From contig LRSL01000039.1 in assembly GCA_001563335.1 (NCBI GenBank), positions 1-21,556 on the forward strand: a DNA stretch of 21,556 bases, given 5' to 3'. The position numbers and the translations under genes were made by a program. This document shows, piece by piece, positions 645-20,784 of the stretch. The notes beneath the pieces are model-generated. The model was not told the DNA's origin, ran no database searches, and was given only the letters and a program-made list of their open reading frames with translations. This DNA is from Candidatus Thorarchaeota archaeon SMTZ1-45. GTDB lineage: Archaea; Asgardarchaeota; Thorarchaeia; Thorarchaeales; Thorarchaeaceae. Within the stretch, counting starts at the first letter, position 1, and the number at the start of each line of letters is the position of its first letter.

Positions 645-1838
645 TTATTTACTATCATAACCTGTGAAAATAAACGATAGACCTCTATTTCTAAGTATAA
701 GCAGTGTGAATGGAATTGATAGTCCAAAGGCGATTACAAACCGTATAGACCAGAAGAGCGTGAATGTTGATTCATAGTCTGTTGTTGAAAAACCGAACAG
801 ACTTACAAGTATGGGAACTAAATAGAAGAAAAGGGGATGTATCTCATAGATGATTTGAGAATTCACCCCAAGAAACTGCATCCTTTTACTGAAGAATGAT
901 GGATTGAGAAGGCTTGATATCATGAAGAAGGCAATTGTGCCTGAAGTGCCAGTTAGGAGGTACAACCATCCATTTTTGCCGAACCAATCATCAGGGTGGC
1001 TAACGAAGCCATTATACTGTGAGAGCAGAATGAAGGTTGTTGATAGAACTATGAAGATTACCCCATCACGTATTTTTGATTCTGTACTCCACCGTTCTAA
1101 ACCCCTATACCTTTTCATCTCATAGCCGATAATGCAGAATGTCGTGGCAAACAGTACACTATTCACACGCCATGGCACTAATATTGGAGAAAATACGTCT
1201 GTAATCCATAAGGCAAGAAATGGAAGAATAACAACAAACGGCCAGCGCACCCTTGGATCCTGAGCATGTGTCACTGCCTCGATTAATATGAAGAGCATCA
1301 AGCCAAAGTAAAGGACCGGGAGAAACCACAAGTATGTAGGTTGCCCAGGAGGTCCAGCCCCATAAATTAACCAAAAAACCAAATCTCCCGGTGTTAGGTA
1401 GGTATCAATTGAACCAGTCAACGGGATGAAAAGAAGCGTCATAATTATGTAAATGGCGAAGTATGGAAGCAAAAGTTGGCGTCCACGGGAGAATGCATAA
1501 TTTTTGAGGTTTCTACGATGCCTTTCGCTATTGTATGTCATGCCTGCGAGAATGAAGAACAACGGCATAACAAAACTGGTTATGATAAAAATTACAGACT
1601 CTAAAAGGACATCGCTCATTGGGGGAATCATAGAATGAGCCACAACTACAAAGACTATTCCGAAACCTTTTGATATATCAATCCAATCTTGCCTTTTACT
1701 GGGGACTGGTTCATTCAGGACAGTACAGCTCCATTTTAGCGCACACTGGAAAATGCGTAATGCTATACAACCCTTGGTAAGCTTTTTAACGCTCACCATC
1801 GCGGTGTGTTTCGACGCGCTCGTTGTGAGTGCTGTCAA
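645..1838 (-). CDS. Acyltransferase family 3 (OafA/YrhL-like) polytopic membrane acyltransferase; true start probably near 1720
   Basis: Motifs RQDWIDISKGFGIVFVVVAH, FVMPLFFILAG, R-x-x-LLPY, LWFL and LGVNSQIIYEIH, with about 10 hydrophobic segments. The first ~40 codons overlap the divergent tRNA promoter/leader and are probably not translated. Confidence 0.88.
   Translation of the reverse strand: MTALTTSASKHTAMVSVKKLTKGCIALRIFQCALKWSCTVLNEPVPSKRQDWIDISKGFGIVFVVVAHSMIPPMSDVLLESVIFIITSFVMPLFFILAGMTYNSERHRRNLKNYAFSRGRQLLLPYFAIYIIMTLLFIPLTGSIDTYLTPGDLVFWLIYGAGPPGQPTYLWFLPVLYFGLMLFILIEAVTHAQDPRVRWPFVVILPFLALWITDVFSPILVPWRVNSVLFATTFCIIGYEMKRYRGLERWSTESKIRDGVIFIVLSTTFILLSQYNGFVSHPDDWFGKNGWLYLLTGTSGTIAFFMISSLLNPSFFSKRMQFLGVNSQIIYEIHPLFFYLVPILVSLFGFSTTDYESTFTLFWSIRFVIAFGLSIPFTLLILRNRGLSFIFTGYDSK
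1783..1790 (+). promoter_or_regulatory. Putative TATA box of the tRNA-Gly(GCC) transcript
   Basis: TTTTTAAC is the only TATA-like element upstream of the tRNA; archaeal spacing predicts a start near 1811-1816. Confidence 0.5.
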
Positions 1839-1842
1839 AAAT

Positions 1843-1980
1843 GCGTCCGTTGTCTATAGGACTTCAATTTCTGATGTCCTGACAAAGGGGCTATGATGGA
1901 TCCCTGCCATGGTGCAGGGGCTCATCCCTCGGAACCGCAGAACGGATCCGGCCCGGGTTCGAATCCCGGCGGACGCACCA
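1843..1980 (+). tRNA. tRNA-Gly(GCC) with two introns (1857-1886 in the D-loop at position 14/15; 1910-1942 canonical 37/38), encoded CCA
   Basis: Acceptor GCGTCCG/CGGACGC + ACCA; T-arm CCGGG-TTCGAAT-CCCGG; anticodon stem GATCC/GGATC with spliced loop CTGCCAC. The spliced D-arm GTCTAGGGGCTATGAT matches GTCTAGGGGTTATGAT of the intron-less tRNA-Gly(TCC) in this window at 15 of 16 positions. Intron 2 forms a strict bulge-helix-bulge (CTGC/GCAG, bulges CAT and AAC, inner GGT/ACC). Confidence 0.93.
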
Positions 1981-2084
1981 TTTCTTATTTGGTTTAAAAG
2001 TATCAATTTGAAGGCATTTCTGCCTAGAGAAGTGCTTATTATCTAATGATTCGACAATTTGAGCAACTGATTTTGGTGATGTAG

Positions 2085-2606
2085 ATGAGGATAAACTGGG
2101 TTTCGATTGTTCTAGCTTTCGTGTGCATTGGGTTCGTAGTGGGTTCTGCTCTTTCATTCGCGGTCCCCTACCAAAAGGACGAAATGATTCTAGAGGGGTC
2201 GGACTTCGGTATCGTGGGTGGTCTGACAGTACCGTTTCATGCTAGATTTCCTTTGAGGTCTTACAATCAGTCTATAGACATCTTCCTACAATGCACCAAT
2301 GGCTCTCTTGACATTGTTGTATTGAAGGCTACTGAGCGGGAAGCATGGTATCAAGGAGAAAATTACTCGGTATATTATGAGGCAAGAAATGTGACAAGTG
2401 TCATGACTACTGTTGAAATCTATCCACCAGATATTTACTCGATTGATATCATTTTTCAGACAAATTACGGGGATGTGCAGATGAGTGTGAGTATGACCAG
2501 CCAATGGATGGGATATGACGATTCAACTGGATTTAATTCTCTATTAGTGGCAATACCCTTTGGTTTGGGTTCATTCTACTATGCTACTAAAAAGGCCAAA
2601 GAATGA
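2085..2606 (+). CDS. Hypothetical membrane-anchored protein (N-terminal TM/signal, beta-rich extracellular domain, C-terminal TM); cassette 1
   Basis: GGTGA SD-like motif upstream; hydrophobic termini; N-glycosylation sequons NQS, NGS, NYS, NVT in the central domain. Confidence 0.8.
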   Translation: MRINWVSIVLAFVCIGFVVGSALSFAVPYQKDEMILEGSDFGIVGGLTVPFHARFPLRSYNQSIDIFLQCTNGSLDIVVLKATEREAWYQGENYSVYYEARNVTSVMTTVEIYPPDIYSIDIIFQTNYGDVQMSVSMTSQWMGYDDSTGFNSLLVAIPFGLGSFYYATKKAKE

Positions 2607-2653
2607 TAGCAACGCGATTGGAGCAGATATTTCCTGAATTAAGGAGTAGCCAA

Positions 2654-2681
2654 CCAGGTTCGGATCCCGGAGAGCGCACCA
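2654..2681 (+). repeat. tRNA 3'-end fragment R1 (T-arm + 3' acceptor strand + ACCA), att-like direct repeat
   Basis: CCAGG TTCGGAT CCCGG AGAGCGC ACCA, 23/28 identical to 1953-1980, followed by CTTCTTCT. No 5' tRNA half is visible upstream. Confidence 0.88.
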
Positions 2682-2743
2682 CTTCTTCTACTTAACCATT
2701 TATTTGTGACTGAAAGTATAGCTGAGGACGGAAGGTTATTGGA

Positions 2744-3430
2744 ATGGATATTTTATTACCGCCAGGATTATTCCATTATATGCCCTTATGGTTCATTTTC
2801 TTCTTTATCATCTACTTTCATAACTGGCAACATGCTTCATGGAAAAAAAGACGCAATATTGCTATAGCTGTCGTGTTGATTCCTATGACCTTTCTGATAC
2901 CACTTCATATCTGGGGAACATACAATCTTATTGGAATTGAGAACAATGGAGTATTTGCAGGTCCGTTCACGACATTGGAAACCTCGTCAACTATCTCGCC
3001 TAATACCACCTACACATCAGAAATCCTATCTAATCTATATACTATGGAATTAGTAAAGGTATCAATCTCTACAAGTGACAGTGTCGTGTTCTATATTTTA
3101 GATGAGAACAAACCTGATGTCCGATATGCAGAGGTCAATATCACTGACACAGAGTATCAAATCAGTATCTATCTACCATATTACTACACGGAGCTGTTTA
3201 TAGTAGCAAAATGGACGTTGAATATTCACAACCCAAGTTCTAATACAACTGTTGATTATACAATTACAATGCATGGTCTCTATGGATGGCCTGCAGCCCA
3301 TGAACAGCCTAGATATAGATGGAGTTATCAGCAGTTTATTCAACCATTTTGGGCACTACTGAGTTTGTGCATAGCTTATGTCAGTTCCACTTTTATAGCG
3401 TTTTACTATTATGACGAGTTAGAACCATAA
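2744..3430 (+). CDS. Hypothetical membrane protein (two N-terminal TMs, beta-rich extracellular domain, C-terminal TM); cassette 2
   Basis: 228-aa ORF with hydrophobic segments, a Ser/Thr-rich domain with NTT/NIT sequons and visibly AT-rich DNA (18/60 GC in 3001-3060). Confidence 0.8.
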   Translation: MDILLPPGLFHYMPLWFIFFFIIYFHNWQHASWKKRRNIAIAVVLIPMTFLIPLHIWGTYNLIGIENNGVFAGPFTTLETSSTISPNTTYTSEILSNLYTMELVKVSISTSDSVVFYILDENKPDVRYAEVNITDTEYQISIYLPYYYTELFIVAKWTLNIHNPSSNTTVDYTITMHGLYGWPAAHEQPRYRWSYQQFIQPFWALLSLCIAYVSSTFIAFYYYDELEP

Positions 3431-3436
3431 GTATGC

Positions 3437-3464
3437 TTGAGTTCGAATCCTGGTGAGCGCACCA
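3437..3464 (+). repeat. tRNA 3'-end fragment R2, att-like direct repeat
   Basis: TTGAG TTCGAAT CCTGG TGAGCGC ACCA, 21/28 identical to 1953-1980, separated by 6 nt from the stop codon at 3430. Confidence 0.85.
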
Positions 3465-3629
3465 CACCTCATGGTTCTACTCATTGGTTCAAACCACGCC
3501 TCTCAGGGTTTATATGCTCTCAAAAACAATGTTCACCTGACTATGGGAGTTATTGTCTTTCAAAGCCGCCACCTCAAAATCCTATTTTTCAGTCCTAGTT
3601 TTCCTAAAGTCTACTCTCATAGCTAAATC

Positions 3630-5072
3630 ATGAAATTAGTGAGAAAAATGAAAAATAAGAAACGCATACGTATTACCACAATGGTAACTTTTACCATTAT
3701 GATGCTACTCATGACGGTCGCTGCAATGCCTGTGACCGCGTATGGCAATTCCAGTGGCGTTGGGTACCAGGGAACAGGTGATGACCCTCATGATTGGATA
3801 ACACTCCGTGCAATCAATATTCTCAGCTCAGACGGATACTCGAAAATCAGCTCGGAGGCCAGTTTATACTTCGGGGATTTGCAGGATGGGTCCTACGACG
3901 CGGATTGGGAACAAGGAGTCATTGAAGGAAATCCTATTGCAGCTAAAGACCACTACTGTGATCCCTTCACTGGCCTGGGTCTAATGGGGATATTCAAAGG
4001 AGCACACATCTATGCTCAGGAGTATTTTGACAAAGCAGTTGCTCTCTATAAGGGGGGCAATAGGAAGGATGCATACTACAATCTTGGATTTGCAGTCCAT
4101 GTGCTTCAAGATGTAACTGTTCCCCACCACACTCGCATTTGGGATGCTAAACAAGATGGTCATAAGGAATATGAAGATTACATCAATGGGAAGAAGAGTG
4201 ATATCAACAAAATTAGTGGTCCGGGTCTTTATGATGGGGCTACGACTGCAAGTGGCTGGGTTCGGAATAACGCTGGCATGAGCTATGGCTTTCACACATT
4301 TGTGAACGGTGGCCCTACCTCAGGCAACAACAACTATGAGTTTGCAGCAGATAGCCTCTTGCCCATAGCTGTGAGAACAACTGCTGGATTTCTACGTTTC
4401 TTCTATGAGGAAGCGAATCAGGGTAGAAGTGAAACTCAAATGTCAGGCACTCTATCCAGTAGGGGAAGCTCCTACATCGGTTATGTCGATGTAGCTTTTG
4501 GTGATCATACTGTTGTCCTAGTGGGCAACGAACCTGACGCAGACTTTGACCTCTTTGTGAAATGGGAATCTGCTCCAACTTCTTCATGCGATGCATCTAG
4601 CACGTCATATGATTCAATAGAGAAGGTCACTGTGCGGGGAAAGGGTCGTCTGTACTTCAAAGTCTATGCGTGGTCAGGTAGTGGGAACTGGAAATTAGCT
4701 GTCATCTATGGCAAGGCGGACAAGGCCACTACAATCAGAAACTCACTCAACTATGTCTGGGATCGCACAGACACCTTCAGCCTTAAAGGAGGACAGACAG
4801 AAGGTCGCATGATTGGCTGGGCATTCCTAGCTGGACCAGATGAAGATGACTTCGACCTTTATGTACGGTGGGAGAGTACACCAACAACCTCAACTTATGC
4901 AGCAAGAGGATATTCATCGAGATCCCAAGAGATATGCGATGCAAAATCACAGTGGTATTCCACACCCATGTACCCGATAAAGGGGTACGTAAGCGACAAC
5001 TACCTCTTCTATGTGATGGTGAGAGCTTACAGGGGATCTGGAAGTTTTATACTCATGATATTGATATTCTAA
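3630..5072 (+). CDS. Secreted zinc-dependent phospholipase C / S1-P1 nuclease fold protein with two C-terminal PPC-like domains; cassette 3
   Basis: Basic-hydrophobic signal peptide ending VTA; Zn-ligand pattern HDWI, GSYDAD, DHY, GFAVHVLQDVTVPHH, HKEYE as in the Zn-dependent PLC family; two pre-peptidase C-terminal-like repeats DADFDLFVKWESAPT and DDFDLYVRWESTPT. The start could be 3630 or 3648. Confidence 0.85.
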   Translation: MKLVRKMKNKKRIRITTMVTFTIMMLLMTVAAMPVTAYGNSSGVGYQGTGDDPHDWITLRAINILSSDGYSKISSEASLYFGDLQDGSYDADWEQGVIEGNPIAAKDHYCDPFTGLGLMGIFKGAHIYAQEYFDKAVALYKGGNRKDAYYNLGFAVHVLQDVTVPHHTRIWDAKQDGHKEYEDYINGKKSDINKISGPGLYDGATTASGWVRNNAGMSYGFHTFVNGGPTSGNNNYEFAADSLLPIAVRTTAGFLRFFYEEANQGRSETQMSGTLSSRGSSYIGYVDVAFGDHTVVLVGNEPDADFDLFVKWESAPTSSCDASSTSYDSIEKVTVRGKGRLYFKVYAWSGSGNWKLAVIYGKADKATTIRNSLNYVWDRTDTFSLKGGQTEGRMIGWAFLAGPDEDDFDLYVRWESTPTTSTYAARGYSSRSQEICDAKSQWYSTPMYPIKGYVSDNYLFYVMVRAYRGSGSFILMILIF

Positions 5073-5115
5073 GAGGGTACTAAGAAGAGCATCTATTGAA
5101 TAGTGGTGTAGCGAC

Positions 5116-5143
5116 CTGGGTTCGAATCCTGGCGAGCTCACCA
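5116..5143 (+). repeat. tRNA 3'-end fragment R3, att-like direct repeat
   Basis: CTGGG TTCGAAT CCTGG CGAGCTC ACCA, 23/28 identical to 1953-1980, followed by CTTCTTCTTTG. Confidence 0.9.
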
Positions 5144-5242
5144 CTTCTTCTTTGACTTTATAGGGTGTAATTAACCAGTGTAGATTAGTACAAGACTAAT
5201 GCGATAGTAACGCATTTGTCTTACTAAGGATATATCTAAAGT

Positions 5243-5734
5243 ATGGAGGCTACAAAGAAGCGGAGCTTGAAGTTTGAACCAGTTCTGGTTATCTATACAT
5301 TCTTCTCGCCGAGTATAGGCGAAGCTGAGGTTTGGGGGATTGGAGAACATTATGTTCTTGACGCGGTAGTACGTCGCTCTTTCACTTCAAGTCTGTTTTG
5401 GGTTTTCGAAGGGTGGAGTGCAGAAACTCTAACAGGAGAACCAAATTCTGCTCAGCTAATATTTCCCTACTCTGCGCCTCCACTTGCAACTATGTTGTGG
5501 CTAGTGGGATGTCTATCAACAGTCTTAGTTTGGATGGTTCTGAAAGGATACGTATCTCGTGAGATCGGACTCTTTCTAGTAATAATTACTCTACTACTTC
5601 CCTTTTTCATTCCTGGAATAAGCACTAATATAGTGGAGGAGAGCTACACTTACAACAGGACTCCGTTACCAGTTTCTCAAATGATTGGATTCATTATTCT
5701 CATGTTCAAACGAAAATGGAACATTACCAAATGA
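5243..5734 (+). CDS. Hypothetical membrane protein
   Basis: 163-aa ORF with 3-4 hydrophobic segments; no recognisable family. Confidence 0.7.
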   Translation: MEATKKRSLKFEPVLVIYTFFSPSIGEAEVWGIGEHYVLDAVVRRSFTSSLFWVFEGWSAETLTGEPNSAQLIFPYSAPPLATMLWLVGCLSTVLVWMVLKGYVSREIGLFLVIITLLLPFFIPGISTNIVEESYTYNRTPLPVSQMIGFIILMFKRKWNITK

Positions 5735-5844
5735 ATTCTGAGGATTCACTTCTCTCCGTTTTGTAATGATAGCGAGATTCCCAATATTCAGACTTCTAGT
5801 GCAAGATTGAAAAGGAAGGTGAAACCTAGTACTCGTTTGGCGAG

Positions 5845-6972
5845 TTGAGTCAGATGCAAAAGGGCACTCATGGATCCAATTCCAGGATGCACCCGATTTT
5901 GATCGTACTTTCAAAAGTACCAATGAAACTCACCTATACAATGATACTCGTTGGCGTATTGACATATGCTGTATTCATTCTGCTCACTCTGCTGACAGGT
6001 GAAGCAGTACAAGTCCTACTCTCTTTCATGCATCTGGTTCAATTGGACTTCTCGCTGCTTATTATGGTTGGACTATTCTTCTTACGTAGCTATTATACAA
6101 TGCTTGACAGGACTCTCAGAGAGATTCGTTATGCGTTTGTGATTGATGATGATGAGTATGAACGGTATCTTGAAAATCTGATCAAGAGGATGAGCGACAG
6201 ACGGGGGTATCTCTATGGCATTCCTTTCATTGTTCTTGCAATGATCTCAATTCTTCTTTTTGTGATGCCAAATATGCCCAATCCTCTATTCCCTGTTGAC
6301 CCCCTGTCGCCAGTTTGGCTCTATATCTCTATGATCGAATTCATTCTAATTATGCTTCCACTATTTGGAGTGGCCATCTGGCTTGGTGTTGTGGTCATGT
6401 CTGTATCAAAGGACATTGGACGAAGGCTGGAAATTTCCGTAGAACCAATTTCACCTGACCGTGCAGGAGGACTTGTTTCGTTCTCTGAGATGCTCCTGAG
6501 GGGTGTTTTCATGTATTCTCTCTTAATTGTCTTGCTAATACCTCTACTCGCTTACCTTGTGCACAATCTGAGTTTCATTAGTCCGTTACTATCTTTGATT
6601 CCCACAGCGGGACTGACACTAGCAGTTGTGACCATTTGCATATTCTTTCTAGGCCCTCAGTATTATGTTCACAACATCCTAGAGAAAGAAAAGAAGAAAC
6701 ACTTGTTTCAAGTTAGTAATGAGGTGAATGCAGTCCTTTCTAACATCAGAAGCATACTCGCCTCATCTTCTTCGAAATCTGATATTCCATCTCAGCAACT
6801 TACTCTTGTAAGCCTTCAACTCACCACGTTCTTTGAACAGGTAGAAAAGATGAAGACATGGCCCTCGACACTCTGGATGACCGCGAAGGCAATCAGCTCT
6901 CTACTCCTCATCTTACTCACGTTTTTTGTCAACCAGTTCCTAATCCAATACCTGGAGATGGTCTTTGGTTAA
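5845..6972 (+). CDS. Hypothetical polytopic membrane protein (about 7 TM); start may be ATG 5887
   Basis: Long ORF with alternating hydrophobic helices, a PDRAGGL loop and a TWP motif before the last helix. Confidence 0.8.
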   Translation: MSQMQKGTHGSNSRMHPILIVLSKVPMKLTYTMILVGVLTYAVFILLTLLTGEAVQVLLSFMHLVQLDFSLLIMVGLFFLRSYYTMLDRTLREIRYAFVIDDDEYERYLENLIKRMSDRRGYLYGIPFIVLAMISILLFVMPNMPNPLFPVDPLSPVWLYISMIEFILIMLPLFGVAIWLGVVVMSVSKDIGRRLEISVEPISPDRAGGLVSFSEMLLRGVFMYSLLIVLLIPLLAYLVHNLSFISPLLSLIPTAGLTLAVVTICIFFLGPQYYVHNILEKEKKKHLFQVSNEVNAVLSNIRSILASSSSKSDIPSQQLTLVSLQLTTFFEQVEKMKTWPSTLWMTAKAISSLLLILLTFFVNQFLIQYLEMVFG

Positions 6973-6993
6973 TCATTGGCTTTGTTCGACCTT

Positions 6994-7929
6994 TTAAGGT
7001 CTGTAGACTCGGGCAGCATTCTCCCAGTATAGCTTCCGAAGAACAGAGAGAGGTAAATCAAGGCCATTTATGAAAGTACCACCTGAGTCCTTGGTGTCTT
7101 CATCCTCGAACGGGAGGGGCTCATCTTGAACATCTGTTTCCCATAATAATCTCTGAGCAAGATATCTGGCGCCGAAGTACTCCATTTCACCACGGTGGGC
7201 TGACAAATCTGTTCCGAACAGAATTCTTTCTGTATACTTCAATAGAAACTTCTTGGCTTTGACTACATCCTTGCTCAGCTCGCGTGCCATCCATCTTGAA
7301 GATGCTGTGTCGAGGATGATGTTCGAGAACCTGTCTAACCAACTACTGAGATTTGCAAGCCGGTGTATCTCAGACTGTGCGCCAAAGTGTGGAATCTGAA
7401 AAAGCAGTCGAGTGTGTCGTTCTAGAACTCCTTCTATCTGACTCAAATTGTCTTCCTTTGTCCCATACTTTGATGCATCTTGATAATGCAGTTGAAAGTA
7501 AGTGTCAGGATCTGCAACATGAATCAGTAGTGGAAGTTCGCAATCTTCAAGAGCTTGGAATACAGGGTCAAGCTTTGGACTATCAATTCTGAAGTCGCTT
7601 GGTACATCTTCAATATAGTCACGCCAGCGAGGACCGAACCAAGTCTTTGCAAGTGAATATCCCTCGTCTTTTGTCTTTGAAATATCATCAATGACTGGCT
7701 CAACATTATAGTGTGCAATATCTCTCAGGGACAGATATTTTGCAAAGACGAAACGCTCGGGATACTTCTCTCTAGCGTATTCGAATCCATCCTTTGAGTG
7801 GACAATCCCAATCTGTGTGGCCACACCAAACTTATCTTCGATTCTTAGCATCTTATCGATAGTTTCTGGTTCACCAATATGGGTGTGAGCATCAAAGATG
7901 GGTCCTTTGTATTTCCACTCTTCCGTCAA
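6994..7929 (-). CDS. Amidohydrolase family (Amidohydro_2-like) metal-dependent hydrolase
   Basis: IFDAHTH (HxH), LLIHVADP, PHFG and RILFGTD metal-ligand motifs; YWENAARVY C-terminus. Confidence 0.88.
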   Translation of the reverse strand: MTEEWKYKGPIFDAHTHIGEPETIDKMLRIEDKFGVATQIGIVHSKDGFEYAREKYPERFVFAKYLSLRDIAHYNVEPVIDDISKTKDEGYSLAKTWFGPRWRDYIEDVPSDFRIDSPKLDPVFQALEDCELPLLIHVADPDTYFQLHYQDASKYGTKEDNLSQIEGVLERHTRLLFQIPHFGAQSEIHRLANLSSWLDRFSNIILDTASSRWMARELSKDVVKAKKFLLKYTERILFGTDLSAHRGEMEYFGARYLAQRLLWETDVQDEPLPFEDEDTKDSGGTFINGLDLPLSVLRKLYWENAARVYRP

Positions 7930-10888: not shown

Positions 10889-12901
10889 CTACTTGTCAAT
10901 CCAGCCCTCAAATTTTCTCTGAAGTGTCTTGGTATAGACTTTTCTCCAATCATAGTCTACCTTGTCACACCACTTGTATACAACCTTTGGATGAACATAT
11001 GATTTGAGGGAGGTTCCTAGATTCCATGTGCGACAGTCCCTTGCAAGTGTAAAATCAACTTCTATCTTCTTCTTGGCAAGTTCTGCTTTCTTCACACGTT
11101 CCTTGGTGGTTTCAACAGCTCTCTCGGCTCTAGCTATTCGCTCTGTAGATTTTTCCTTCCACTCGTTGAGGATCTTCTGTTGTTTTTCTAGAGATTGTCT
11201 ACTCTTCTGATATCGTTCTCGAGCGCTTACTAGTCCAGCTTCTGCGTTTTCCAACCGATCACGTGCTCGATCTATTCGTTCCTGAGCCTCTTCCAATCGC
11301 TCCTTTTTGGTGGATTTTCCTTTAAGCTTGCTTGTTCTTGTACGACTTTTCTGAGCTCGAGCATTGTCCCAAGTCATTTTGGCTTTGTCACGCTTCTCTC
11401 GCCATGACTTGACAGATGCCATGTTCTTCTCAACTGATTCCTTTTGCTTTGAGATGCGAGCCTGTTTCCCCTTTCTTAGCTCTTCTTCCTTTTTCCTCAC
11501 CATTCGAAGACGTTGCTGTTTCTCTTTCAGTTGTAAAAGTGCTTTCTGAATTCTTGTTTCAGCTTTCCTGATACGTTGTCTGTATCTATCAGCACTGCGG
11601 CTCCATCCCTTTGGAGCTTGCTTTGTATGGTTCATAACGCGGGCTACTTCAAGGTTCGCACGCTTGAAAGCCTTCTTCTTCATGAACTCAGGATCCACTT
11701 TCTTCGCCTTACTGGTCTTGAGTTCTTCACGCATCGTCACTGTGGCATGATAGGTACGAAATACTTTGGCTGTGAGTTCGGGATAGACTTCACTTAGAAA
11801 TCGGTTTACATGAGTACTTCCGATAGACGGGAATATTTGGGCTATCTTTTTGGGAGCCCCACCGGTTCTCTTACTCTTTCTTCTGCTAAATGATTCAATG
11901 CGCTCAAGAGCATTATCATGCAGCTCCTTCAATTCATCATAGACAACTGGAAGCATCTCAACTTCCTTGTGCCATCGAACACTGTCCTTTCCTAGAAAAT
12001 CAAAGACTACTGTGTTTTCTCGAAATGTCAAGTGCTCAGCTCTGAGCGTGGTCGCACCAACTGTGTCTGCCTCTTCTGGGTCTTTCTCATCTCCAACACG
12101 AAGGCTGAAACGATCAATCAAGTAACAAGCTGCAGCGACCATTCTTCTCTTTGGATTTTCAGAATGTAATCCATCCATGATATGCGAGCGAATCACGTCT
12201 ATCCATCGTTCCACTCGCAGAGCCCTATCGAACTTTGCAGCTTCGCGTTCTTGTTTGATTGGTGTGCTATCGTGAAGCCAGATGTACTTCACTTTACCAG
12301 TCAGCTCATCAGTCCATTTTGCAATCCACATAGTATCAGGAGCCCACACGAGTTCCCCCCACTCACCTTCCAAGCTTGATAGTCCCTCTGGACTGATATT
12401 CAAAGTGATGTCCTTCTTAGTAGCTCCCTGTTTCCACCTGCCCCTCAGGGGATGGTTTCCCCGCCCCATGAAGATGCCTGATGGTTCAGTCTGGTAGTTG
12501 CCAAGTTCCATCCTCTCACCATCAACTAGTGCATAACCATACTTCTGTTTTAGTTGTTCACGGGTCGCTATTCGATCCTCACGAACAGCCTTCTTCTCCT
12601 CAGAGGTCATGTTTTCCTTAGACGCTCTTTCCTCCTCCACTACCTGAATCACTTCACTAAAGTCGACCTCATCAATGTTCAAAACTGGCTCTACTCCAAG
12701 TGCTTTGCTGAAATCAGTCATGAAGTTACTCGCAAAGATAGGGTCATCAACATAGGGAGTGCCAAGTTTCTTGACCCAAGCAACAGCCATCTCTTCTTGA
12801 AGCTGCGAAAGGATGATCTCTCTTTCTCTTGCTCTAATTGAAAGTCCACGCGGTTGAGGTGGTTCAATGACAAGAATGCCATTGTGTATCAGTGATTCCA
12901 T
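10889..12901 (-). CDS. top1: DNA topoisomerase IB, eukaryote-like, with long coiled-coil linker
   Basis: EPSGIFMGRGNHPLRGRWK, catalytic R (LRVGDEKD), DTVGATTLR, K (FDFLGKDS), R (LTAKVFRTY), H (MNH) and Tyr (LGTSLKSYVHP). Confidence 0.95.
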   Translation of the reverse strand: MESLIHNGILVIEPPQPRGLSIRAREREIILSQLQEEMAVAWVKKLGTPYVDDPIFASNFMTDFSKALGVEPVLNIDEVDFSEVIQVVEEERASKENMTSEEKKAVREDRIATREQLKQKYGYALVDGERMELGNYQTEPSGIFMGRGNHPLRGRWKQGATKKDITLNISPEGLSSLEGEWGELVWAPDTMWIAKWTDELTGKVKYIWLHDSTPIKQEREAAKFDRALRVERWIDVIRSHIMDGLHSENPKRRMVAAACYLIDRFSLRVGDEKDPEEADTVGATTLRAEHLTFRENTVVFDFLGKDSVRWHKEVEMLPVVYDELKELHDNALERIESFSRRKSKRTGGAPKKIAQIFPSIGSTHVNRFLSEVYPELTAKVFRTYHATVTMREELKTSKAKKVDPEFMKKKAFKRANLEVARVMNHTKQAPKGWSRSADRYRQRIRKAETRIQKALLQLKEKQQRLRMVRKKEEELRKGKQARISKQKESVEKNMASVKSWREKRDKAKMTWDNARAQKSRTRTSKLKGKSTKKERLEEAQERIDRARDRLENAEAGLVSARERYQKSRQSLEKQQKILNEWKEKSTERIARAERAVETTKERVKKAELAKKKIEVDFTLARDCRTWNLGTSLKSYVHPKVVYKWCDKVDYDWRKVYTKTLQRKFEGWIDK

Positions 12902-12981: not shown

Positions 12982-13056
12982 TGGTGCGGCCACCGGGATT
13001 CGAACCCGGGTCACGAGCTTGGAAGGCTCGAATCATAACCCCTAGACTATGGCCGC
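12982..13056 (-). tRNA. tRNA-Gly(TCC), intron-less, encoded CCA
   Basis: Reverse complement GCGGCCA TA GTCT AGGGGTTA TGAT T CGAGC CTTCCAA GCTCG TGAC CCGGG TTCGAAT CCCGG TGGCCGC ACCA folds as a full cloverleaf. Confidence 0.97.
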
Positions 13057-13374: not shown

Positions 13375-14091
13375 TCAAATAACAGAATATCTGTTCTTGA
13401 CAACATCTATTCTTAGCGAGTACAACCATAAGAATTCTGCACAGATATGCCAGGTCATCATCATCTCCTTATCTAATTCGAGATGTGTGTCGAAGTATGA
13501 CGTTATCTCCTCGGGTTGGGGACCATGTGGGAATGCTCCAACACCCACAATCACAGGAATTGAGGAATCTTGAGGGAGCAAGTTTTGAAGATTTTCCACT
13601 GATGTCTTTTTCCCGCTCTCAGAGGCTAAAAGCGTCATTGAGGAGGGACTTCCATCTTTCAATTCTGAGATTAGATTTCCGAGTGTTATATCTACAAACC
13701 GCAAGAGAGGGTCGCCTTGTGGAGGAACACGCCCTTCGAGTAGGAGTTGTTCGATCAATCCAACAAATCGGTCATAGTTTCGAGGAAGTCTAACATCGGG
13801 GTGCACCTCGACTATACTACCATCTTGAAGGTGTAGGTGTACACTGAGAAGACCTTCCTTACAGAGGGGGGTTTCAAGAATTGAAAGTAAGCTGAGATAT
13901 GTAATGTCTGGTCGCCCTCTGCGTTCACTCAGAGAGAGTTTTGTCATTGATTGACCGTGGTGTGTCTGATCAAGGATAATCTCAGAGGGTTTCTTTCCCC
14001 GACGTGCGGAATATTTCTGGATTTGTTTTAGACTAGTAATTTCTCTAGGTATCAATTCAATTGCACAGTCAAGGAGTATGATATGTAGCAT
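13375..14091 (-). CDS. nep1: 16S rRNA pseudouridine N1-methyltransferase Nep1/Emg1 (SPOUT)
   Basis: ILDQTHH, RGRPDI, RLPRNYDRFVGLIEQLL and VGVGAFPHG motifs. Confidence 0.93.
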   Translation of the reverse strand: MLHIILLDCAIELIPREITSLKQIQKYSARRGKKPSEIILDQTHHGQSMTKLSLSERRGRPDITYLSLLSILETPLCKEGLLSVHLHLQDGSIVEVHPDVRLPRNYDRFVGLIEQLLLEGRVPPQGDPLLRFVDITLGNLISELKDGSPSSMTLLASESGKKTSVENLQNLLPQDSSIPVIVGVGAFPHGPQPEEITSYFDTHLELDKEMMMTWHICAEFLWLYSLRIDVVKNRYSVI

Positions 14092-14170
14092 TGGTATTCT
14101 CCTTAAGGAATGTTCAACACGAACGATTTAAGCAGTTTGACCTATCTTTCATTGTTGTAGAGGCTTGTGT

Positions 14171-14494
14171 ATGTCAAAAAGAAGTCACCCAAGAGTCAAG
14201 GCGAAACGTCTTGCAGAAGTGAGGGTGGAGATTCTTTGGGAACAGGCAAAGAAAGCAATTAAATCCGGTAGACCAGAAATAGCAAGACAACAGATGTTCA
14301 GTGCCCGAAAAATCGCACAGAGGACAAGGACCAAGCTGCCACAACATATCAACCGAAGAGTCTGTAGGAGTTGCGGGAGCATTCTGGTACCAGGAGATAA
14401 TTGTAGGGTTAGAGTGCGACATAATAGGTCAAAACATCTTGCAGTGACCTGCTTGAACTGTGGGAGAGTAAAAAGGTACGACATCAACAAGTGA
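14171..14494 (+). CDS. rnp4: Ribonuclease P protein component 4 (Rpp21)
   Basis: Helical N-terminus, CRSC...LVPG...RVR...TCLNCG zinc ribbon; conserved position upstream of yhbY-rps19e. Confidence 0.92.
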   Translation: MSKRSHPRVKAKRLAEVRVEILWEQAKKAIKSGRPEIARQQMFSARKIAQRTRTKLPQHINRRVCRSCGSILVPGDNCRVRVRHNRSKHLAVTCLNCGRVKRYDINK

Positions 14495-14545
14495 GTCGTA
14501 GGCATAGCTTAATACAGGTTCCTGAAGATTGTAGGTTGAATTTAG

Positions 14546-14830
14546 ATGAAAAACGACAAAGATTCTGTCAGAATAAAGATTACTTGGCAGGAACCAGCAC
14601 TTATGCAGATTGGGAAAGGAGGTGTTTCTGCAAACATCATAGAGGAGGCAAAAAGGCTCCTCAAGAAACATCAGTATATGAAAGTCCGCATTCTAAGGAG
14701 TGCACTTGGTGACTCAACCAAAGGAGACTTGTTGAGTTCCCTTTGTCAGAAGACGGGAGCGAAGCTCGATGGTTTTCGCGGAAACACTGCGGTAATCTAT
14801 AAGACCCGACAGATGCAAGCCTTCCAATGA
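14546..14830 (+). CDS. yhbY: YhbY/CRM-domain RNA-binding protein
   Basis: QIGKGG (GxxG), MKVRIL, RGNTAVIY. Confidence 0.9.
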   Translation: MKNDKDSVRIKITWQEPALMQIGKGGVSANIIEEAKRLLKKHQYMKVRILRSALGDSTKGDLLSSLCQKTGAKLDGFRGNTAVIYKTRQMQAFQ

Positions 14831-14897
14831 TTCTGAAGCACCTAATACTTGGTTTTAATCCTCTGATCATATTAGTTTCATCAAACACAACGACAAC

Positions 14898-14905
14898 CTT
14901 TTATG
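14898..14905 (+). promoter_or_regulatory. Putative TATA box of the rps19e operon
   Basis: CTTTTATG preceded by an A-rich BRE-like stretch, about 95 nt upstream of the rps19e ATG. Confidence 0.45.
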
Positions 14906-14998
14906 CGGACTCTAGACGGTGGTTCCAGCCTTTTGAGGTAGGTCAGCCGCTAAACTTGGGTGAGGTGACCTGTTCTCAATGAGATTGGTGACAAACAT

Positions 14999-15451
14999 AT
15001 GCCTACTGTCTATGATATTCCAGCAAATATCCTCATACGTCGACTTGCTCAGGACCTGAAGTCCAGAGAGGAGATAGCTGTTCCAGACTGGATGCCGTTT
15101 GCGAAGACTGGTGCTCATAGAGAGCGGGGTCCAGATGACCCAGAATTCTGGTATGTCAGATGTGCAAGTATTCTCCGCAAGATATACTTGAACGGTCCAA
15201 TTGGAACTGAGAAGTTGCGTATTGCATACGGTGGAAAAAAGAGACGTGGCGTAAAGCCAAACAAGTTTCAGAAAGGGAGTGGGTCTATCGTAAGGACCGC
15301 ACTGCAACAGCTTGAAAGAGCTGGATTCATCAAGAAGCAAGGAAATAAAGGTAGAGAGATGACCGACATTGGTAGGTCATATATGGACAAACTGTCATCA
15401 ACTCTAAAGAAAGAACTCTCACAGGCAATTCCAGAACTGGAGAAGTACTAA
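14999..15451 (+). CDS. rps19e: 30S ribosomal protein eS19
   Basis: MPTVYDIPA, KTGAHRERGP, WYVRCASILRKIY, GSGSIVRTALQQLE; GGTGA SD. Confidence 0.97.
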   Translation: MPTVYDIPANILIRRLAQDLKSREEIAVPDWMPFAKTGAHRERGPDDPEFWYVRCASILRKIYLNGPIGTEKLRIAYGGKKRRGVKPNKFQKGSGSIVRTALQQLERAGFIKKQGNKGREMTDIGRSYMDKLSSTLKKELSQAIPELEKY

Positions 15452-15469
15452 GCTGGGTGATAAGGCAAA

Positions 15470-15799
15470 ATGAGTGATGATGAACTCGAAGCGATCCGCC
15501 AGAGAAAGGAGGCTCAACTTCGGGAGCAGGCACTCAGAGAACAAGCCAATGAGCAGCAAGCTGCTGAAGCCCAAGCACAAAAGGAAGCTCTGCTCAGGCA
15601 GATTCTCACTCCTGAAGCACGTGCCCGACTAACGAACATAAGAATGGTCAAACCTCAGTTTGCTGAGCAAATTGAGATTCAACTCATTCAACTGGCGACT
15701 GCTGGAAGGCTTAGAGCACGTGTGACTGATGAACAACTGAAAGGACTCCTGCAACAACTTCAGGGAAAGGAACGAGAACGGAAAATATCATTCAGATGA
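15470..15799 (+). CDS. PDCD5/TFAR19-like dsDNA-binding protein
   Basis: [36 protein letters not shown]; standard synteny after rps19e. Confidence 0.93.
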
Positions 15800-15821
15800 A
15801 TTGCTGTTAAAGGTGACTAAA

Positions 15822-15977
15822 ATGGCACGAAACAAACCACTAGCAAAGAAAATGAGGATGGCGAAAGCAATGAGAAGTAACTCCTCAGTACCTACATGGG
15901 TCATTGTCAAGACCGGCGGTAAGTTGAGAAGAACACCTTCGCAGCGTAATTGGCGTCAGACAAAGCTAAAACCATAA
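15822..15977 (+). CDS. rpl39e: 50S ribosomal protein eL39 (absent from the ORF track, 51 aa)
   Basis: Translation [51 protein letters not shown]; AGGTGA SD. Confidence 0.96.
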
Positions 15978-15991
15978 TCAGGTGGGCATAG

Positions 15992-16399
15992 ATGTCAAAT
16001 AAGAAGAAGAAAGAACCAGAGCTCGAGGTCTCTGAAGAAGAGCCTGAGATTGAAGAGGCTGAAGAGATTGAAGAAGCACCAGCTGACGCTAAGAAAGTTG
16101 AGGTTCCAGTAGAGGAAGAGAAACCTGAAGAGGAAGAAGAGATCATAGATGAACGGATCTACACCGTGCCATTAAGGAAAGCCTACTGGTCAGGGACCAG
16201 ACTTCGTAGGTCTAATAGAGCAGTCAGGGTTCTCCGCGAGTTTGTGGAGAGGCATATGAAACCTGAGGAGCTTCTTATCCAACCTGAAGTAAATGAGCAC
16301 ATCTGGGCAAGAGGTATTCAGAAACCTCCACGAAGAGTTAGAATCCGAGCGACCAAGAATTCAGACAATCTTGTGCGTGTCTATCTTGCGGAGGGGTAG
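15992..16399 (+). CDS. rpl31e: 50S ribosomal protein eL31 with acidic N-terminal extension
   Basis: ERIYTVPLR, RAVRVLREFVERHMK, VNEHIWARGIQKPPRRVR. Confidence 0.96.
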   Translation: MSNKKKKEPELEVSEEEPEIEEAEEIEEAPADAKKVEVPVEEEKPEEEEEIIDERIYTVPLRKAYWSGTRLRRSNRAVRVLREFVERHMKPEELLIQPEVNEHIWARGIQKPPRRVRIRATKNSDNLVRVYLAEG

Positions 16400-16405
16400 C
16401 TCAGA

Positions 16406-17071
16406 ATGATCGCCCGAACAGACTTCGAGGGCGATTCGAATGTTGGAGCTTATGGAATCGCCACAGACCGCTTTGTATTTGTTAGCTCTAATATGTCAGA
16501 GAAGGGACTAGACACCATCGAGAAAACGTTCAATCTACCTTTAGTTCAAACAACAATTGCTACTCTAGACGCTGTGGGACTGGTTTCTGTGGCTACATCT
16601 AATGGGATTCTTGTTCCATACACAACAACAGATGAGGAGCTTGCTCAACTCAAGAGTTCGTCAGAGGTCCCAGTAGACTGGTTGGATGACAAGATGACGG
16701 CACTTGGAAATATTATCATTGCCAATGACAATGGCGCAATATGTCATCCCGACTTCAATTTTAGATCTAGACGGAAGATATCAGATGTCCTTGGAGTGGA
16801 AGTCGTTTCTGGTAGTCTTGCTAAATTACCTATTGTGGGTGCAAATGCGATAGCAACAAACCATGGAGCAGTAGTACATCCTCTAGCCACGAAAAGTGAG
16901 ATTGAACTGCTAGCACAGTTGTTAAAAGTGCATGTAGAAGTTGGAACAGTGAACAGAGGAAGCCCATACACAAGTCTGGGTGTGTTAGCAAATACTGATG
17001 GAATGATTGCAGGAACTGATACAACAGGAGTTGAACTAGCACATATCAGTCAGGTCTTGGGATTTGTATAG
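16406..17071 (+). CDS. eif6: Translation initiation factor 6 (aIF6)
   Basis: Pentein repeats, LGNIIIAND, GTVNRGSP, TTGVEL. Confidence 0.96.
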   Translation: MIARTDFEGDSNVGAYGIATDRFVFVSSNMSEKGLDTIEKTFNLPLVQTTIATLDAVGLVSVATSNGILVPYTTTDEELAQLKSSSEVPVDWLDDKMTALGNIIIANDNGAICHPDFNFRSRRKISDVLGVEVVSGSLAKLPIVGANAIATNHGAVVHPLATKSEIELLAQLLKVHVEVGTVNRGSPYTSLGVLANTDGMIAGTDTTGVELAHISQVLGFV

Positions 17072-17087
17072 ATGAGGTGCAACTTGG

Positions 17088-17330
17088 ATGAGTTCGAAAA
17101 TTTGGCGAGCAACTGGCGCTTACATAAAAGGGAAGAGAAAGTTCACATTTACTAGAGAGCTTCTTGCTGATAAGGAGGATCATGTCAGGGAGCGAATCTT
17201 CTCAGAAATGGGTAGCCGCCATAGGGTGAAACGCAAAGATGTTGAAATCTCTGAGATAAACGAGATTAAACCTGAAGAAGTCACAAACTTGGAACTAAGA
17301 AGAATACTTGGAGTGGAGACTGAATTCTAA
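17088..17330 (+). CDS. rpl18a: 50S ribosomal protein eL20 (L18Ae/LX)
   Basis: FSEMGSRHRVKR motif; synteny between aIF6 and pfdA. Confidence 0.93.
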   Translation: MSSKIWRATGAYIKGKRKFTFTRELLADKEDHVRERIFSEMGSRHRVKRKDVEISEINEIKPEEVTNLELRRILGVETEF

Positions 17331-17779
17331 TGAAGGAAGATCCACAAGCTAAGCTCGAGAGGGTCTATAACGAGCAACAGATAATGGAATCAAATCTCAA
17401 TCTTTTGCAGCAACGAATTGAAGTAGTCCAAGTATATATCACAAACTATCGCTCTGGTCTTTTAGTCCTAGAGGAGATAGAGAAAAGGAAAGAGGATGAG
17501 GAGATGCTCATGAATGTGGGAGGCAGCATCTTCGTTCAGGCCAAACTTGTAGATCCAGACAGGGTAATCCGCGGGATTGGAAACGGAGTTCGAATAGAAC
17601 AGAATGTTGCAGACGCAAAAGCAGCGATAATTGAGGCTGTGTCCAGTCTAGAGAAACAATACGAGGCGCTTACTCAAGAATATCAACGTTTGATTGCTCA
17701 TGCATCTAATCTTAATGCACAATTTCAGCAGCTAGCAGCACAGATTCAAGGTGCAACATCCCCCGGTAAGGAGGAGTAA
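17330..17779 (+). CDS. pfdA: Prefoldin alpha subunit
   Basis: Coiled coil - beta hairpins (MNVGGSIFV, RGIGNGVRIE) - coiled coil; TAATG overlap with rpl18a. Confidence 0.92.
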   Translation: MKEDPQAKLERVYNEQQIMESNLNLLQQRIEVVQVYITNYRSGLLVLEEIEKRKEDEEMLMNVGGSIFVQAKLVDPDRVIRGIGNGVRIEQNVADAKAAIIEAVSSLEKQYEALTQEYQRLIAHASNLNAQFQQLAAQIQGATSPGKEE

Positions 17780-17783
17780 CTTA

Positions 17784-18695
17784 TTGTTTGAGAAGCTCAG
17801 GGGAGCACTAGATTCAGCTATTACAAAAGCTACGACAAGAGAGCTTAACGAGAAGAATCTTGCAGATGCTGTCTGGGAGCTTCAGATGGTTCTAATTCAG
17901 AATGATGTGGCGGTTGAAGTTGCAGAGCACATATGTGAACTGACAAAGAAGAAAGTACTTGGAACGAGAGCAGGAAGACTCGAGAACCTCAGTCGCCTTT
18001 TCAAGTCTGCTATATACGATTCAATTCTCGAAGTTCTCACACCTGAGCATCCACTAGACCCAATTGAATTTGCACGAGAAAAGAGGGAAAAGGGAGAAAC
18101 AACTACTATTCTGTTTGTTGGGGTCAATGGGACAGGCAAGACGACAACTTTGGCAAAGCTTGCTAATATATTCAAAAAAAAGGGATTCTCGGTTGTAATT
18201 GCGGCTGGTGATACTTATCGAGCAGGAAGCATCGAACAGCTTGAGAAGCATGCTGAAAGATTGGGAGTTCGGGTAATAAGACAGGACTATGGTGCTGATG
18301 CTGCAGCTATAGCTTATGATGCTGTTGCGCATGCAAAGGCGCGGCACATTGACATAGTCTTGATTGACTCTGCTGGCAGGATGCAGAGTAACAAGAATCT
18401 CCTTGAGGAGATGAAGAAGATTGTACGTGTGGCTGAACCCGACTTGAAGATCTTTGTTGGAGATGCTCTAGCTGGAAATGATGCTCTATCTCAGGCAAAG
18501 GAGTTTCATAATGCAATAGGCATTGATGGGGCGATTCTGGCTAAAGTTGATGCAGACCCATCTGGTGGAGCAGCTCTTTCTATTGCATTTGTCACTGGGA
18601 GACCCGTGGTCTATGTTGGAGTAGGCCAATACTATGATGACCTAAAGCGTTTTGACCCCAGTTGGTTTGCAGAACGACTCATTGCCGAGAATTGA
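17784..18695 (+). CDS. ftsY: SRP receptor FtsY
   Basis: GVNGTGKTTT, DTYRAG, DSAGR, AKVDAD, GVGQ. TTG 17784 (MFEKL) after GAGGAG is preferred over 17751. Confidence 0.96.
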   Translation: MFEKLRGALDSAITKATTRELNEKNLADAVWELQMVLIQNDVAVEVAEHICELTKKKVLGTRAGRLENLSRLFKSAIYDSILEVLTPEHPLDPIEFAREKREKGETTTILFVGVNGTGKTTTLAKLANIFKKKGFSVVIAAGDTYRAGSIEQLEKHAERLGVRVIRQDYGADAAAIAYDAVAHAKARHIDIVLIDSAGRMQSNKNLLEEMKKIVRVAEPDLKIFVGDALAGNDALSQAKEFHNAIGIDGAILAKVDADPSGGAALSIAFVTGRPVVYVGVGQYYDDLKRFDPSWFAERLIAEN

Positions 18696-18707
18696 GGAAG
18701 TGGACAG

Positions 18708-18716
18708 TTTTTTATA
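18708..18716 (+). promoter_or_regulatory. Putative TATA box for argF-pfkB (the T-run may also terminate ftsY)
   Basis: TTTTTTATA about 46 nt upstream of the argF TTG; GAGGTG SD at 18750-18755. Confidence 0.45.
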
Positions 18717-18761
18717 CGACTCAACTATGATGGCGCTATAGAAAGCCCTGAGGTGTAAGTA

Positions 18762-19685: not shown

Positions 19686-19688
19686 GGG

Positions 19689-20705: not shown

Positions 20706-20784
20706 GTATTATCTGGGTAGTATTCTACTTTTTGTTACAACAATACCTGCGTAATAACATCATCTAGATGTGAGTGGTAATATT

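Follow-up and report, generated by a model that had tools for sequence, protein, structure and literature searches.

A hypervariable array of mostly single-gene cassettes at the tRNA-Gly(GCC) gene of thorarchaeal genomes

Contig LRSL01000039.1 of Candidatus Thorarchaeota archaeon SMTZ1-45 carries, directly behind its gene for tRNA-Gly(GCC), a row of short gene-bearing units separated by copies of the tRNA's own 3' end. The whole stretch analysed, 21,556 nucleotides, is called the window here; it is contig C39 of a 3.54-Mb metagenome-assembled genome (MAG, 42% G+C, 87.7% complete). An original prediction, made from this DNA alone, had described three such units as an integron-like array of cassettes captured at a tRNA gene. 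Comparison with relatives confirms a real, recurrent and hypervariable cassette locus, as seen in its anatomy, an empty site, polymorphism at the repeats, recurrent single-gene modules in shuffled order and arrays free of recombinase genes. We hold with moderate confidence that the locus is a gene-capture array, in which minimal, enzyme-less cassettes would be inserted serially and site-specifically into the T-loop of the tRNA gene by an enzyme acting in trans.

A pattern search for T-arm, acceptor strand and CCA matched the plus strand at 1956-1980, 2657-2681, 3440-3464 and 5119-5143 with 0-1 mismatches, the first match being the end of the tRNA gene itself and the others displaced copies of it (Table 1). 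The search also matched tRNA-Gly(UCC) and a palindromic echo of the 5119-5143 copy, and this number of six matches was reached in 0 of 100 shuffles (shuffle mean 0.01). With CCA ends at 1980, 2681, 3464 and 5143, the units measure 701, 783 and 1679 bp, and each holds one plus-strand open reading frame (ORF) of at least 100 aa; positions and lengths are those given in the prediction. The three ORFs fall into separate BLASTP families at E 1e-6 with no mutual similarity, and Pfam scans of the 28 ORFs of the window found no integrase or transposase, both as had been claimed. The copies, at first described as 28 nt long, do have the T-arm, acceptor and CCA ends, but the block they share is 23 nt followed by a trailer, and the 5' T-stem is not universal among them.

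The array reaches further than these three units. The gene family fam4 forms a repeat-bounded unit in genomes G014 (616 bp) and G020 (735 bp), and fam19 does so in G014 (1320 bp), G009, G072 and G082; in alignments of the window with G014, the repeat between fam4 and fam19 is largely deleted and the terminal repeat is gone, about 83 nt being missing. Since both families are bounded by repeats elsewhere and have lost them here, the array counts five cassettes and extends from 1981 as far as the amidohydrolase gene at 6994. The fam6 gene of cassette 1 occurs at other positions in the arrays of G011, G019, G015, G013 and G023, with its left arm conserved in G011 and G019. The ORF of cassette 2 has just three relatives among 5.8 billion proteins, one of them 99% identical, and that of cassette 3 shows weak Zn-phospholipase-C and PPC domain matches and is 67% identical to a homologue on an array contig from another genus (G071).

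An assembly artefact is ruled out, as the repeated core is shorter than usual assembly words and independent contigs from four public runs (X1-X4) cover the identical array and span each repeat. Tandem duplication is likewise ruled out by the dissimilarity of the three ORFs and the different relatives of the units, and the window's copies are not complete tRNA pseudogenes, the 5' acceptor strand being absent upstream of them. For the window's units, gene order is not fixed among relatives, breakpoints do not lie away from the repeats, and nothing marks the units as eroded integrase-bearing islands.

Table 1. Coordinates of the array, its surroundings and the fam25 genes (window positions unless a contig or locus is named; G000 is the genome of the window)
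Feature	Position	Strand	Basis and remarks
Acyltransferase_3 gene	645..1838	-	Pfam PF01757, E 7e-30; conserved left flank in most relatives
5'-end remnant (acceptor + D-stem) of ancestral tRNA-Gly(GCC) variant, 12 nt	1816..1827	+	15 nt upstream of present 5' end
Functional tRNA-Gly(GCC), encoded CCA, two introns	1843..1980	+	ARAGORN on spliced form; alignment with relatives
Cassette 1	1981..2681	+	Trailer, ORF 2085-2606 (173 aa, membrane protein, fam6), left arm, tRNA-end copy 2654-2681
Cassette 2	2682..3464	+	ORF 2744-3430 (228 aa, membrane protein, no Pfam match), tRNA-end copy 3437-3464
Cassette 3	3465..5143	+	ORF 3630-5072 (480 aa, secreted), tRNA-end copy 5116-5143
Cassette 4	5144..5760	+	ORF 5243-5734 (163 aa, fam4); bounding tRNA-end copy eroded or deleted
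Cassette 5	5761..6993	+	ORF 5845-6972 (375 aa, multi-pass membrane protein, fam19); terminal tRNA-end copy deleted
Amidohydrolase_2 gene	6994..7929	-	Pfam PF04909; conserved right boundary of array
Eukaryote-type DNA topoisomerase IB	10889-12901	-	Topoisom_I_N, catalytic core, C-terminal domain
tRNA-Gly(UCC), genuine tRNA	12982-13056	-	Found in T-arm/acceptor/CCA pattern search
fam25 gene, G000	C69:170074-173652	-
fam25 gene, G000	C69:13552-15807
fam25 gene, G000	C85:10209-12221
fam25 gene, G000	C42:3465-5831
fam25 gene, G000	C109:45215-48910
fam25 gene, elsewhere	L024:6604-8055
fam25 gene, elsewhere	L016:1756-4857

The tRNA at the head of the array is the sole Gly(GCC) gene found in its genome. 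It has the acceptor strands GCGTCCG/CGGACGC and two introns, one of 30 nt in the D-loop (1857-1886) and one of 33 nt after position 37 (1910-1942). Neither ARAGORN nor Rfam calls a tRNA in the unspliced gene, because the two introns interrupt it; once they are scripted out, ARAGORN calls a 75-nt tRNA-Gly(GCC). Intron number and position vary by species, the D-loop intron being absent from G020, G011 and G016, and insertions of about 30 nt lie in or before the T-arm of the gene in G003 and G014.

Among 54 copies, the shared block extends from T-loop position 2-3 through CCA with the consensus TTCRAAT CCCGG CGAGCGC ACCA. Identity among copies starts inside the T-loop, and just this 23-nt core is common to all. 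A T/C-rich trailer follows the CCA in every copy, and the 5' T-stem is retained in about 22 of the 34 displaced copies, the other 12 carrying unrelated sequence in its place. The trailer co-varies with the gene downstream of it, and the 25-55 nt to the left of the core co-vary with the gene upstream, so that a module would run from just past one core to just before the next, with the exchange point in the core. Judged from these alignments, the anatomy is the picture expected of attP x attB recombination within the T-loop, the newcomer supplying a new tRNA 3' end. The idea that tRNA ends play the part of attC sites is not borne out, for the same co-variation makes the repeat a shared crossover core and not a possession of the cassette. 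The three displaced copies of the window carry the ancestral acceptor strand NGAGCGC and not the CGGACGC of the present gene; in G022, G011, G002, G016 and G021 it is the tRNA itself that has CGAGCGC. T-loop position 4 (G or A) is mostly uniform within a genome, as in 8/8 copies of G015 and 4/4 in the window.

The genus of the window is represented by 28 species genomes, in which copies were counted after Gly(UCC)- and Gly(CCC)-type ends had been left out by hand. Gly(GCC)-type end copies number 0 in five of these genomes, 1 in eight and 2-7 in fifteen; up to eight copies stand in a row in G015 (contigs C10 plus C189), and many contigs of the genus end at such copies. At least two exact copies are found in 6/17 genomes of a second genus of the family, and no genome of the other 15 genera of the class has more than one. 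A metagenome scan for the core returned 66 contigs, 23 of which by manual count carry the flank genes of the genus, with arrays of up to six copies.

ORFs and repeats were mapped in 27 loci of the genus and six of the second genus. Families fam4, 6, 7, 11, 12, 15, 16, 17, 19, 20 and 23 recur between the same flanks in different orders, with breakpoints at the repeats, and an operon of a regulator and an ABC transporter recurs likewise; fam6, for example, is first in the window, last in G011 and mid-array in G019 and G015. The remaining cargo includes nitroreductase, GNAT acetyltransferases, NosD-type beta-helix proteins, an epimerase, BNR and FG-GAP proteins and DUF4145. The cassettes are discrete in the sense first proposed, content and order differing among relatives at the repeats. 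The 27 units with repeats on both sides range from 580 to 6974 bp (median 1196 bp; 11 of them at most 1 kb), and one gene per unit mostly holds, a single ORF of at least 70 aa being present in 20 of the 27. Several of the seven multi-ORF units are pairs of families found as single units elsewhere, and some multi-gene units span 3.4-7 kb.

Polymorphism at the repeats is direct. The empty site that the prediction had proposed looking for exists in metagenome contig L166, where the CCA of the tRNA runs straight into the sequence that trails the terminal repeat in G011 and G014. MAG G023 holds two versions of the locus: on one contig the fam17 cassette comes straight after the tRNA, on another two cassettes intervene, and beyond the repeat the two contigs are 99.5% identical over 187 nt. 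Array proteins of the second genus share a median identity of 78% with their best hits in the first (n=23), as against 54% for flank or core proteins (n=18); the difference (Mann-Whitney p=0.0006) is indicative only, since the rows are related.

Under the reading we favour, the locus would have started as an acyltransferase gene, tRNA-Gly(GCC) and an amidohydrolase gene, the CCA lying 7-10 nt from the next gene. Small DNA modules, probably as circles, would then enter the T-loop of the tRNA gene one after another, each bringing a new T-loop-to-CCA end for the tRNA, a pyrimidine-rich trailer, as a rule a single gene together with its upstream sequence, and a left arm that in many cases resembles the 5' T-stem. 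With the crossover placed in the T-loop, each insertion would rebuild the tRNA with the module's own 3' end and displace the previous one downstream, where it would persist as a direct repeat of 23-28 nt; small deletions would later remove repeats and fuse neighbouring cassettes. Since the modules encode no recombinase, the enzyme would have to act in trans, and the likeliest one would be a site-specific recombinase with specificity for the tRNA T-arm, encoded by a mobile element that is unbinned or transient. From the predicted capture in trans, the discrete cassettes and the lack of an integrase inside them have stood; the catalysis in trans we infer, no enzyme, circle or excision junction having been seen in contigs.

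The stand-alone tyrosine recombinase that was expected to co-occur did not turn up, as PF00589 (Phage_integrase), PF16795 (Phage_integr_3) and PF00239 (Resolvase) have no match in the window's genome. Pfam detects no recombinase domain in about 40 cassette representatives, the roughly 40 cassette families hold no integrase, replication, virion or conjugation genes or fragments of them, and 11 tyrosine recombinases of the family used as tblastn queries matched nothing in 93 array loci. PF00589 matches exist in 8/28 genomes of the genus, mostly on contigs of a few kb, and at one site in a single-contig genome of the second genus. They are absent from 20/28, the window's included, and a XerA-type recombinase therefore seems to be missing from these or too divergent to detect.

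Several observations weigh against capture by a recombinase in trans. The searches of the window's genome, the cassettes and the array loci identified no array enzyme; as the genomes are MAGs (the window's 87.7% complete), a recombinase may have been missed. Among 15 integrase loci taken from the genus none holds a Gly-type site, though one has the end of another tRNA, and 0 IMG/VR viral contigs carry the core site. No circle or repeat-to-repeat joint was present in the four public runs, in contigs, which lose rare variants; the sole joint in them lies at the tRNA itself, at a depth of 220-490 and clearly from many organisms. The 12/34 displaced copies lacking a T-stem-like left arm sit oddly with a tyrosine recombinase, which depends on a pair of inverted arms for binding. 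Orientation is mixed as well: the ORFs of the window's units do share a strand, as had been stated, but of all 20 single-ORF units 14 lie on the tRNA's strand and 6 on the opposite one. Finally, the higher identity of cassettes between genera could partly reflect constraint and not transfer.

The array must also be placed among known systems. The closest are tandem island arrays at tRNA or tmRNA ends, such as the ssrA islands of Dehalococcoides and the cis-mobilizable elements (CIMEs); such arrays of tRNA- or tmRNA-end repeats being already on record (PMC3146451, PMC5704250), the system is less undescribed than was first thought. The ssrA islands measure from kb to tens of kb and stand in tandem with strain-specific cargo; an integration module of six genes, among them a serine recombinase (DsiB), is present in 16, and some units lacking the module are proposed to be CIMEs (PMC3146451). 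There, as here, direct repeats of the 3' end stand in a row behind a tRNA-like gene of which the genome has one copy; serial T-loop insertion, to which they are due in Dehalococcoides, would account for them here as well, since identity among the copies begins inside the T-loop. The thorarchaeal units differ in mostly holding one gene (median 1.2 kb), with a recombinase in none of 27 or more, in their Asgard archaeal host and in their target, a true, intron-bearing tRNA, and the window's genome has no PF00239 match. In streptococci, CIMEs are att-flanked, decayed integrative and conjugative elements or integrative and mobilizable elements (ICEs, IMEs) without an integrase, found in tandem at a tRNA 3' end and thought to depend on the integrase of another element (PMC5704250). 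The units of the array are likewise flanked by attL and attR and devoid of integration and transfer genes, but no remnants of ICE or IME genes were found in the cassettes and single-gene modules recur as independent units.

Integrons have been reported in archaeal MAGs (10.1101/2022.02.06.479319). The array is like them in its mostly single-gene and mostly co-oriented cassettes (20/27; 14/20), in its shuffled order and in the lack of a recombinase within cassettes. It is unlike them in that intI is absent both beside the array and in the genome, where neither PF00589 nor PF16795 has a match, in that the platform is an essential tRNA gene and in that cassettes appear to carry their own upstream regions. 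Whereas attC sites are imperfect palindromes of about 60-140 nt with conserved R and L boxes, the repeats are 23-28-nt copies of a tRNA end, in which only the 5-7-5 T-arm is palindromic. The array works like an integron yet, with neither intI nor an attC-type site, does not belong to that class.

In SSV-type elements the integrase gene is split by integration. The array shares with the archaeal tRNA-integrating elements of SSV and pNOB8 type the partial duplication of the tRNA and the displaced fragment left behind, but has no integrase, split or whole. Of the marks of a classical tRNA-integrating provirus, plasmid or island, the array shows the tRNA's 3' part directly repeated at the distal end and, in L166, an empty site, but no integrase of its own. 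Partial tRNA duplications from integration are common in archaea, but elements of Thermococcaceae are 9-23 kb long and encode an integrase (PMC9897764), and other archaeal integrated elements on record measure at least 2.6 kb and carry an integrase (PMC6563490). The literature searched yielded no description of single-gene tRNA-end cassette arrays in archaea, though the supplementary tables of PMC9897764 and PMC3146451 may list tRNA-end units that are small or lack an integrase. What differs from described arrays is the single-gene scale, the arrays wholly without recombinase genes and the host; the logic is shared.

A further gene family complicates the picture. The proteins of fam25 are 484-1231 aa long, with acidic N-termini and a conserved C-terminal domain of 450 aa; they have no Pfam match apart from the C109 paralogue, which matches LAGLIDADG_3 (PF14528), and a profile search against PDB sequences gave nothing meaningful. 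An AlphaFold model (predicted local distance difference test, pLDDT, 85.8) matches I-DmoI, I-Tsp061I and intein endonucleases including PI-PkoII in Foldseek (E 2e-6 to 1e-4, template-modelling score by target about 0.55). As modelled, fam25 would have the double alpha-beta-beta-alpha-beta-beta-alpha arrangement of the LAGLIDADG fold, with an acidic residue ending each LAGLIDADG helix, and in the alignment an S-D(G/C) motif is invariant and a second, P-E-D-G-like motif is present. Its spread is patchy and multi-copy (18/28 genomes, 0-8 copies, many fragments). Seven of 26 copies are convergent with a tRNA 3' end within 1 kb, four of them within 41 nt, the preceding tRNAs being Arg, Asn, Gly, Phe, Ser and Leu (six), and the cassette next to the tRNA in the Gly(GCC) arrays of G015 and metagenome contigs L130/L137 is a fam25 gene. 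This LAGLIDADG-like family, with its place behind tRNA genes, is a candidate driver. Fold and motifs, patchy multi-copy spread and position beside conserved RNA genes recall free-standing homing endonuclease genes and I-DmoI-type enzymes, and "intronless homing" by such free-standing genes is presumably the apt comparison; unlike them, fam25 is very large, has long acidic N-termini and lies outside introns and inteins, behind tRNA genes.

Around tRNA-Gly(GCC), signs of tRNA gene replacement are seen as well. A complete tRNA variant whose acceptor stem has changed is preceded, at a distance of 15-17 nt, by a 12-nt remnant of the ancestral 5' end (GCGCTCGTTGT-), and this order of remnant, spacer and new 5' end is found in the window, G005, G014, G015 and G020 (loci L017, L019, L024, L016). 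Its presence in five genomes suggests that an incoming copy replaced the whole tRNA gene. A longer remnant, from D-loop to CCA, stands behind fam25 in G015, and the tRNA variants of G003 and G014 with their T-arm insertions of about 30 nt count as a further sign. The locus of G014 is rearranged: a complete tRNA-Gly(GCC) lies inverted beside fam25 (L016, about 5114-5260), and where the tRNA usually stands just two pieces of the other variant are left, a 5' part and one from T-arm to CCA. Taken at the level of sequence, the remnants and variants suggest endonuclease-driven turnover of the tRNA gene and perhaps also of cassettes.

Three other accounts of the array have to be weighed. Accretion and decay, in which ordinary integrase-bearing proviruses, plasmids or islands integrated at the tRNA and then decayed to immobile CIME-like stumps, is unlikely in our judgement, and yet it draws on processes that are well described, tandem integration at a re-used tRNA site with later decay being documented in PMC5704250, PMC6563490 and PMC9897764. 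The tyrosine integrases in 8/28 genomes of the genus, one of them beside another tRNA's end, the eroding repeats and cassette borders, and the multi-gene units of 3.4-7 kb would all suit it. It sits badly with cassette families free of any integrase, replication, virion or conjugation fragment, and with 11/27 units of at most 1 kb when described archaeal elements measure at least 2.6 kb with an integrase, or 9-23 kb; nor would random decay of large elements yield the same single genes, separately bounded, in varied genomes and orders. Least probable of the accounts is one with no dedicated machinery, where after the founding integration or integrations the 23-35-nt repeats and conserved flanks would feed ordinary homologous recombination or gene conversion between strains, and copies may persist as a T-arm hairpin plus pyrimidine tract that terminates transcripts. 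The near-uniform T-loop variant within each genome suggests conversion or local exchange, and the trailer in every copy and the stability of the array over four runs agree with it; however, homologous recombination cannot create new repeats, a core-duplicating insertion being required for every cassette that gains a boundary, and the sharp common left limit of identity in the T-loop points to a defined cut site.

Capture by a homing endonuclease is quite improbable, if not to the same degree. Here fam25 would cut tRNA genes and the break would be repaired through tRNA-end homology, copying cassettes in with no recombinase, from donors in which an insert is coupled to a replacement tRNA end or to a complete immune tRNA variant. 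The resemblance of the fam25 model to LAGLIDADG enzymes, the LAGLIDADG_3 paralogue, the patchy multi-copy spread and the position at tRNA 3' ends, including that of tRNA-proximal cassette, speak for it, and tRNA remnants beside a different complete variant and left arms unlike the T-stem fit break repair. But fam25 is in few arrays and not in that of the window, most left arms keep the T-stem, repair from 23 nt of homology is inefficient, and fam25 could simply be a passenger of these hotspots itself, as further cargo or as a selfish element. Equally doubtful, if not a shade more so, is a broader version in which the platform needs no recombinase at all: fam25 would cut resident tRNA genes and spread with immune tRNA variants, whose acceptor stem is altered or whose T-arm or D-loop holds introns, and the breaks would admit one-gene cassettes that are shuffled and exchanged between genera. 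If true, such a platform would provide a mechanistic link between the placement of tRNA introns, the replacement of tRNA genes and an array of accessory genes resembling an integron.

Serial capture by a recombinase in trans remains the account we prefer. Asgard archaea are studied for gene gain, yet their means of gene capture are little known, and this is a compact, re-used site where single accessory genes come, go and cross genera, among them surface and membrane proteins, nitroreductase, acetyltransferases, epimerase and an ABC transporter. The catalyst, if found, would be a trans-acting tRNA-specific recombinase or a cassette-driving homing endonuclease, either of them a new route to an integron-like array, and would directly test a long-standing idea, according to which introns in tRNAs and the splitting of tRNA genes are a defence against mobile elements or a consequence of their attack. 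The conserved flanks and the 23-nt core offer handles for the polymerase chain reaction with which to sample the cassette pool of sediments.

Around the array, relatives conserve a frame of acyltransferase (-), tRNA-Gly(GCC) (+), array and amidohydrolase (-), followed at a distance by topoisomerase IB and tRNA-Gly(UCC) (-). Acyltransferase orthologues at 58-76% identity adjoin the tRNA in 11 genomes of the genus, and the amidohydrolase gene begins 7-10 nt past the CCA in the empty site and at the terminal repeats of G011 and G014. The gene for topoisomerase IB is conserved in synteny, at 4-6 kb from the array in every relative seen; topoisomerases of this type and tyrosine recombinases share their chemistry, and it was considered as the array enzyme and dropped, as nothing links the gene to the array. 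Variation extends to the 5' side of the tRNA: in G002 four ORFs, a block of 4 kb, separate acyltransferase and tRNA (L015 1913-5440), the acyltransferase is swapped for a GNAT gene in G003 and G023 (L037, L039) and for fam32 in G004 (L040), and in G004 the tRNA gene is also preceded, at 1.6 kb, by a 5' tRNA remnant.

One-ORF units akin to those of the Gly(GCC) array adjoin two other tRNA genes of the window's genome. At tRNA-Ala(GGC) (C15:51490-54967), an ORF at 51625-52107 is followed by an end copy at 52109-52136, with a second copy at 54940-54967, and at tRNA-Gln(UUG) (C101:2011-2956) an ORF at 2142-2915 is followed by an end copy at 2929-2956. On C69 (167238-170055), two inverted 3'-end copies of tRNA-Arg(CCG) (167238-167260 and 168627-168654, minus strand) lie upstream of the plus-strand tRNA, which has a fam25 gene 19 nt downstream; the arrangement resembles an inverted array. 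The remainder of the window, 13375-21555, holds housekeeping genes, namely EMG1/Nep1 methyltransferase, the RNase P subunit Rpr2, ribosomal proteins S19e, L31e and L18Ae, eIF-6, prefoldin, an FtsY-type GTPase of the signal recognition particle receptor, aspartate/ornithine carbamoyltransferase, a PfkB kinase and a GTPase of the tubulin/FtsZ family.

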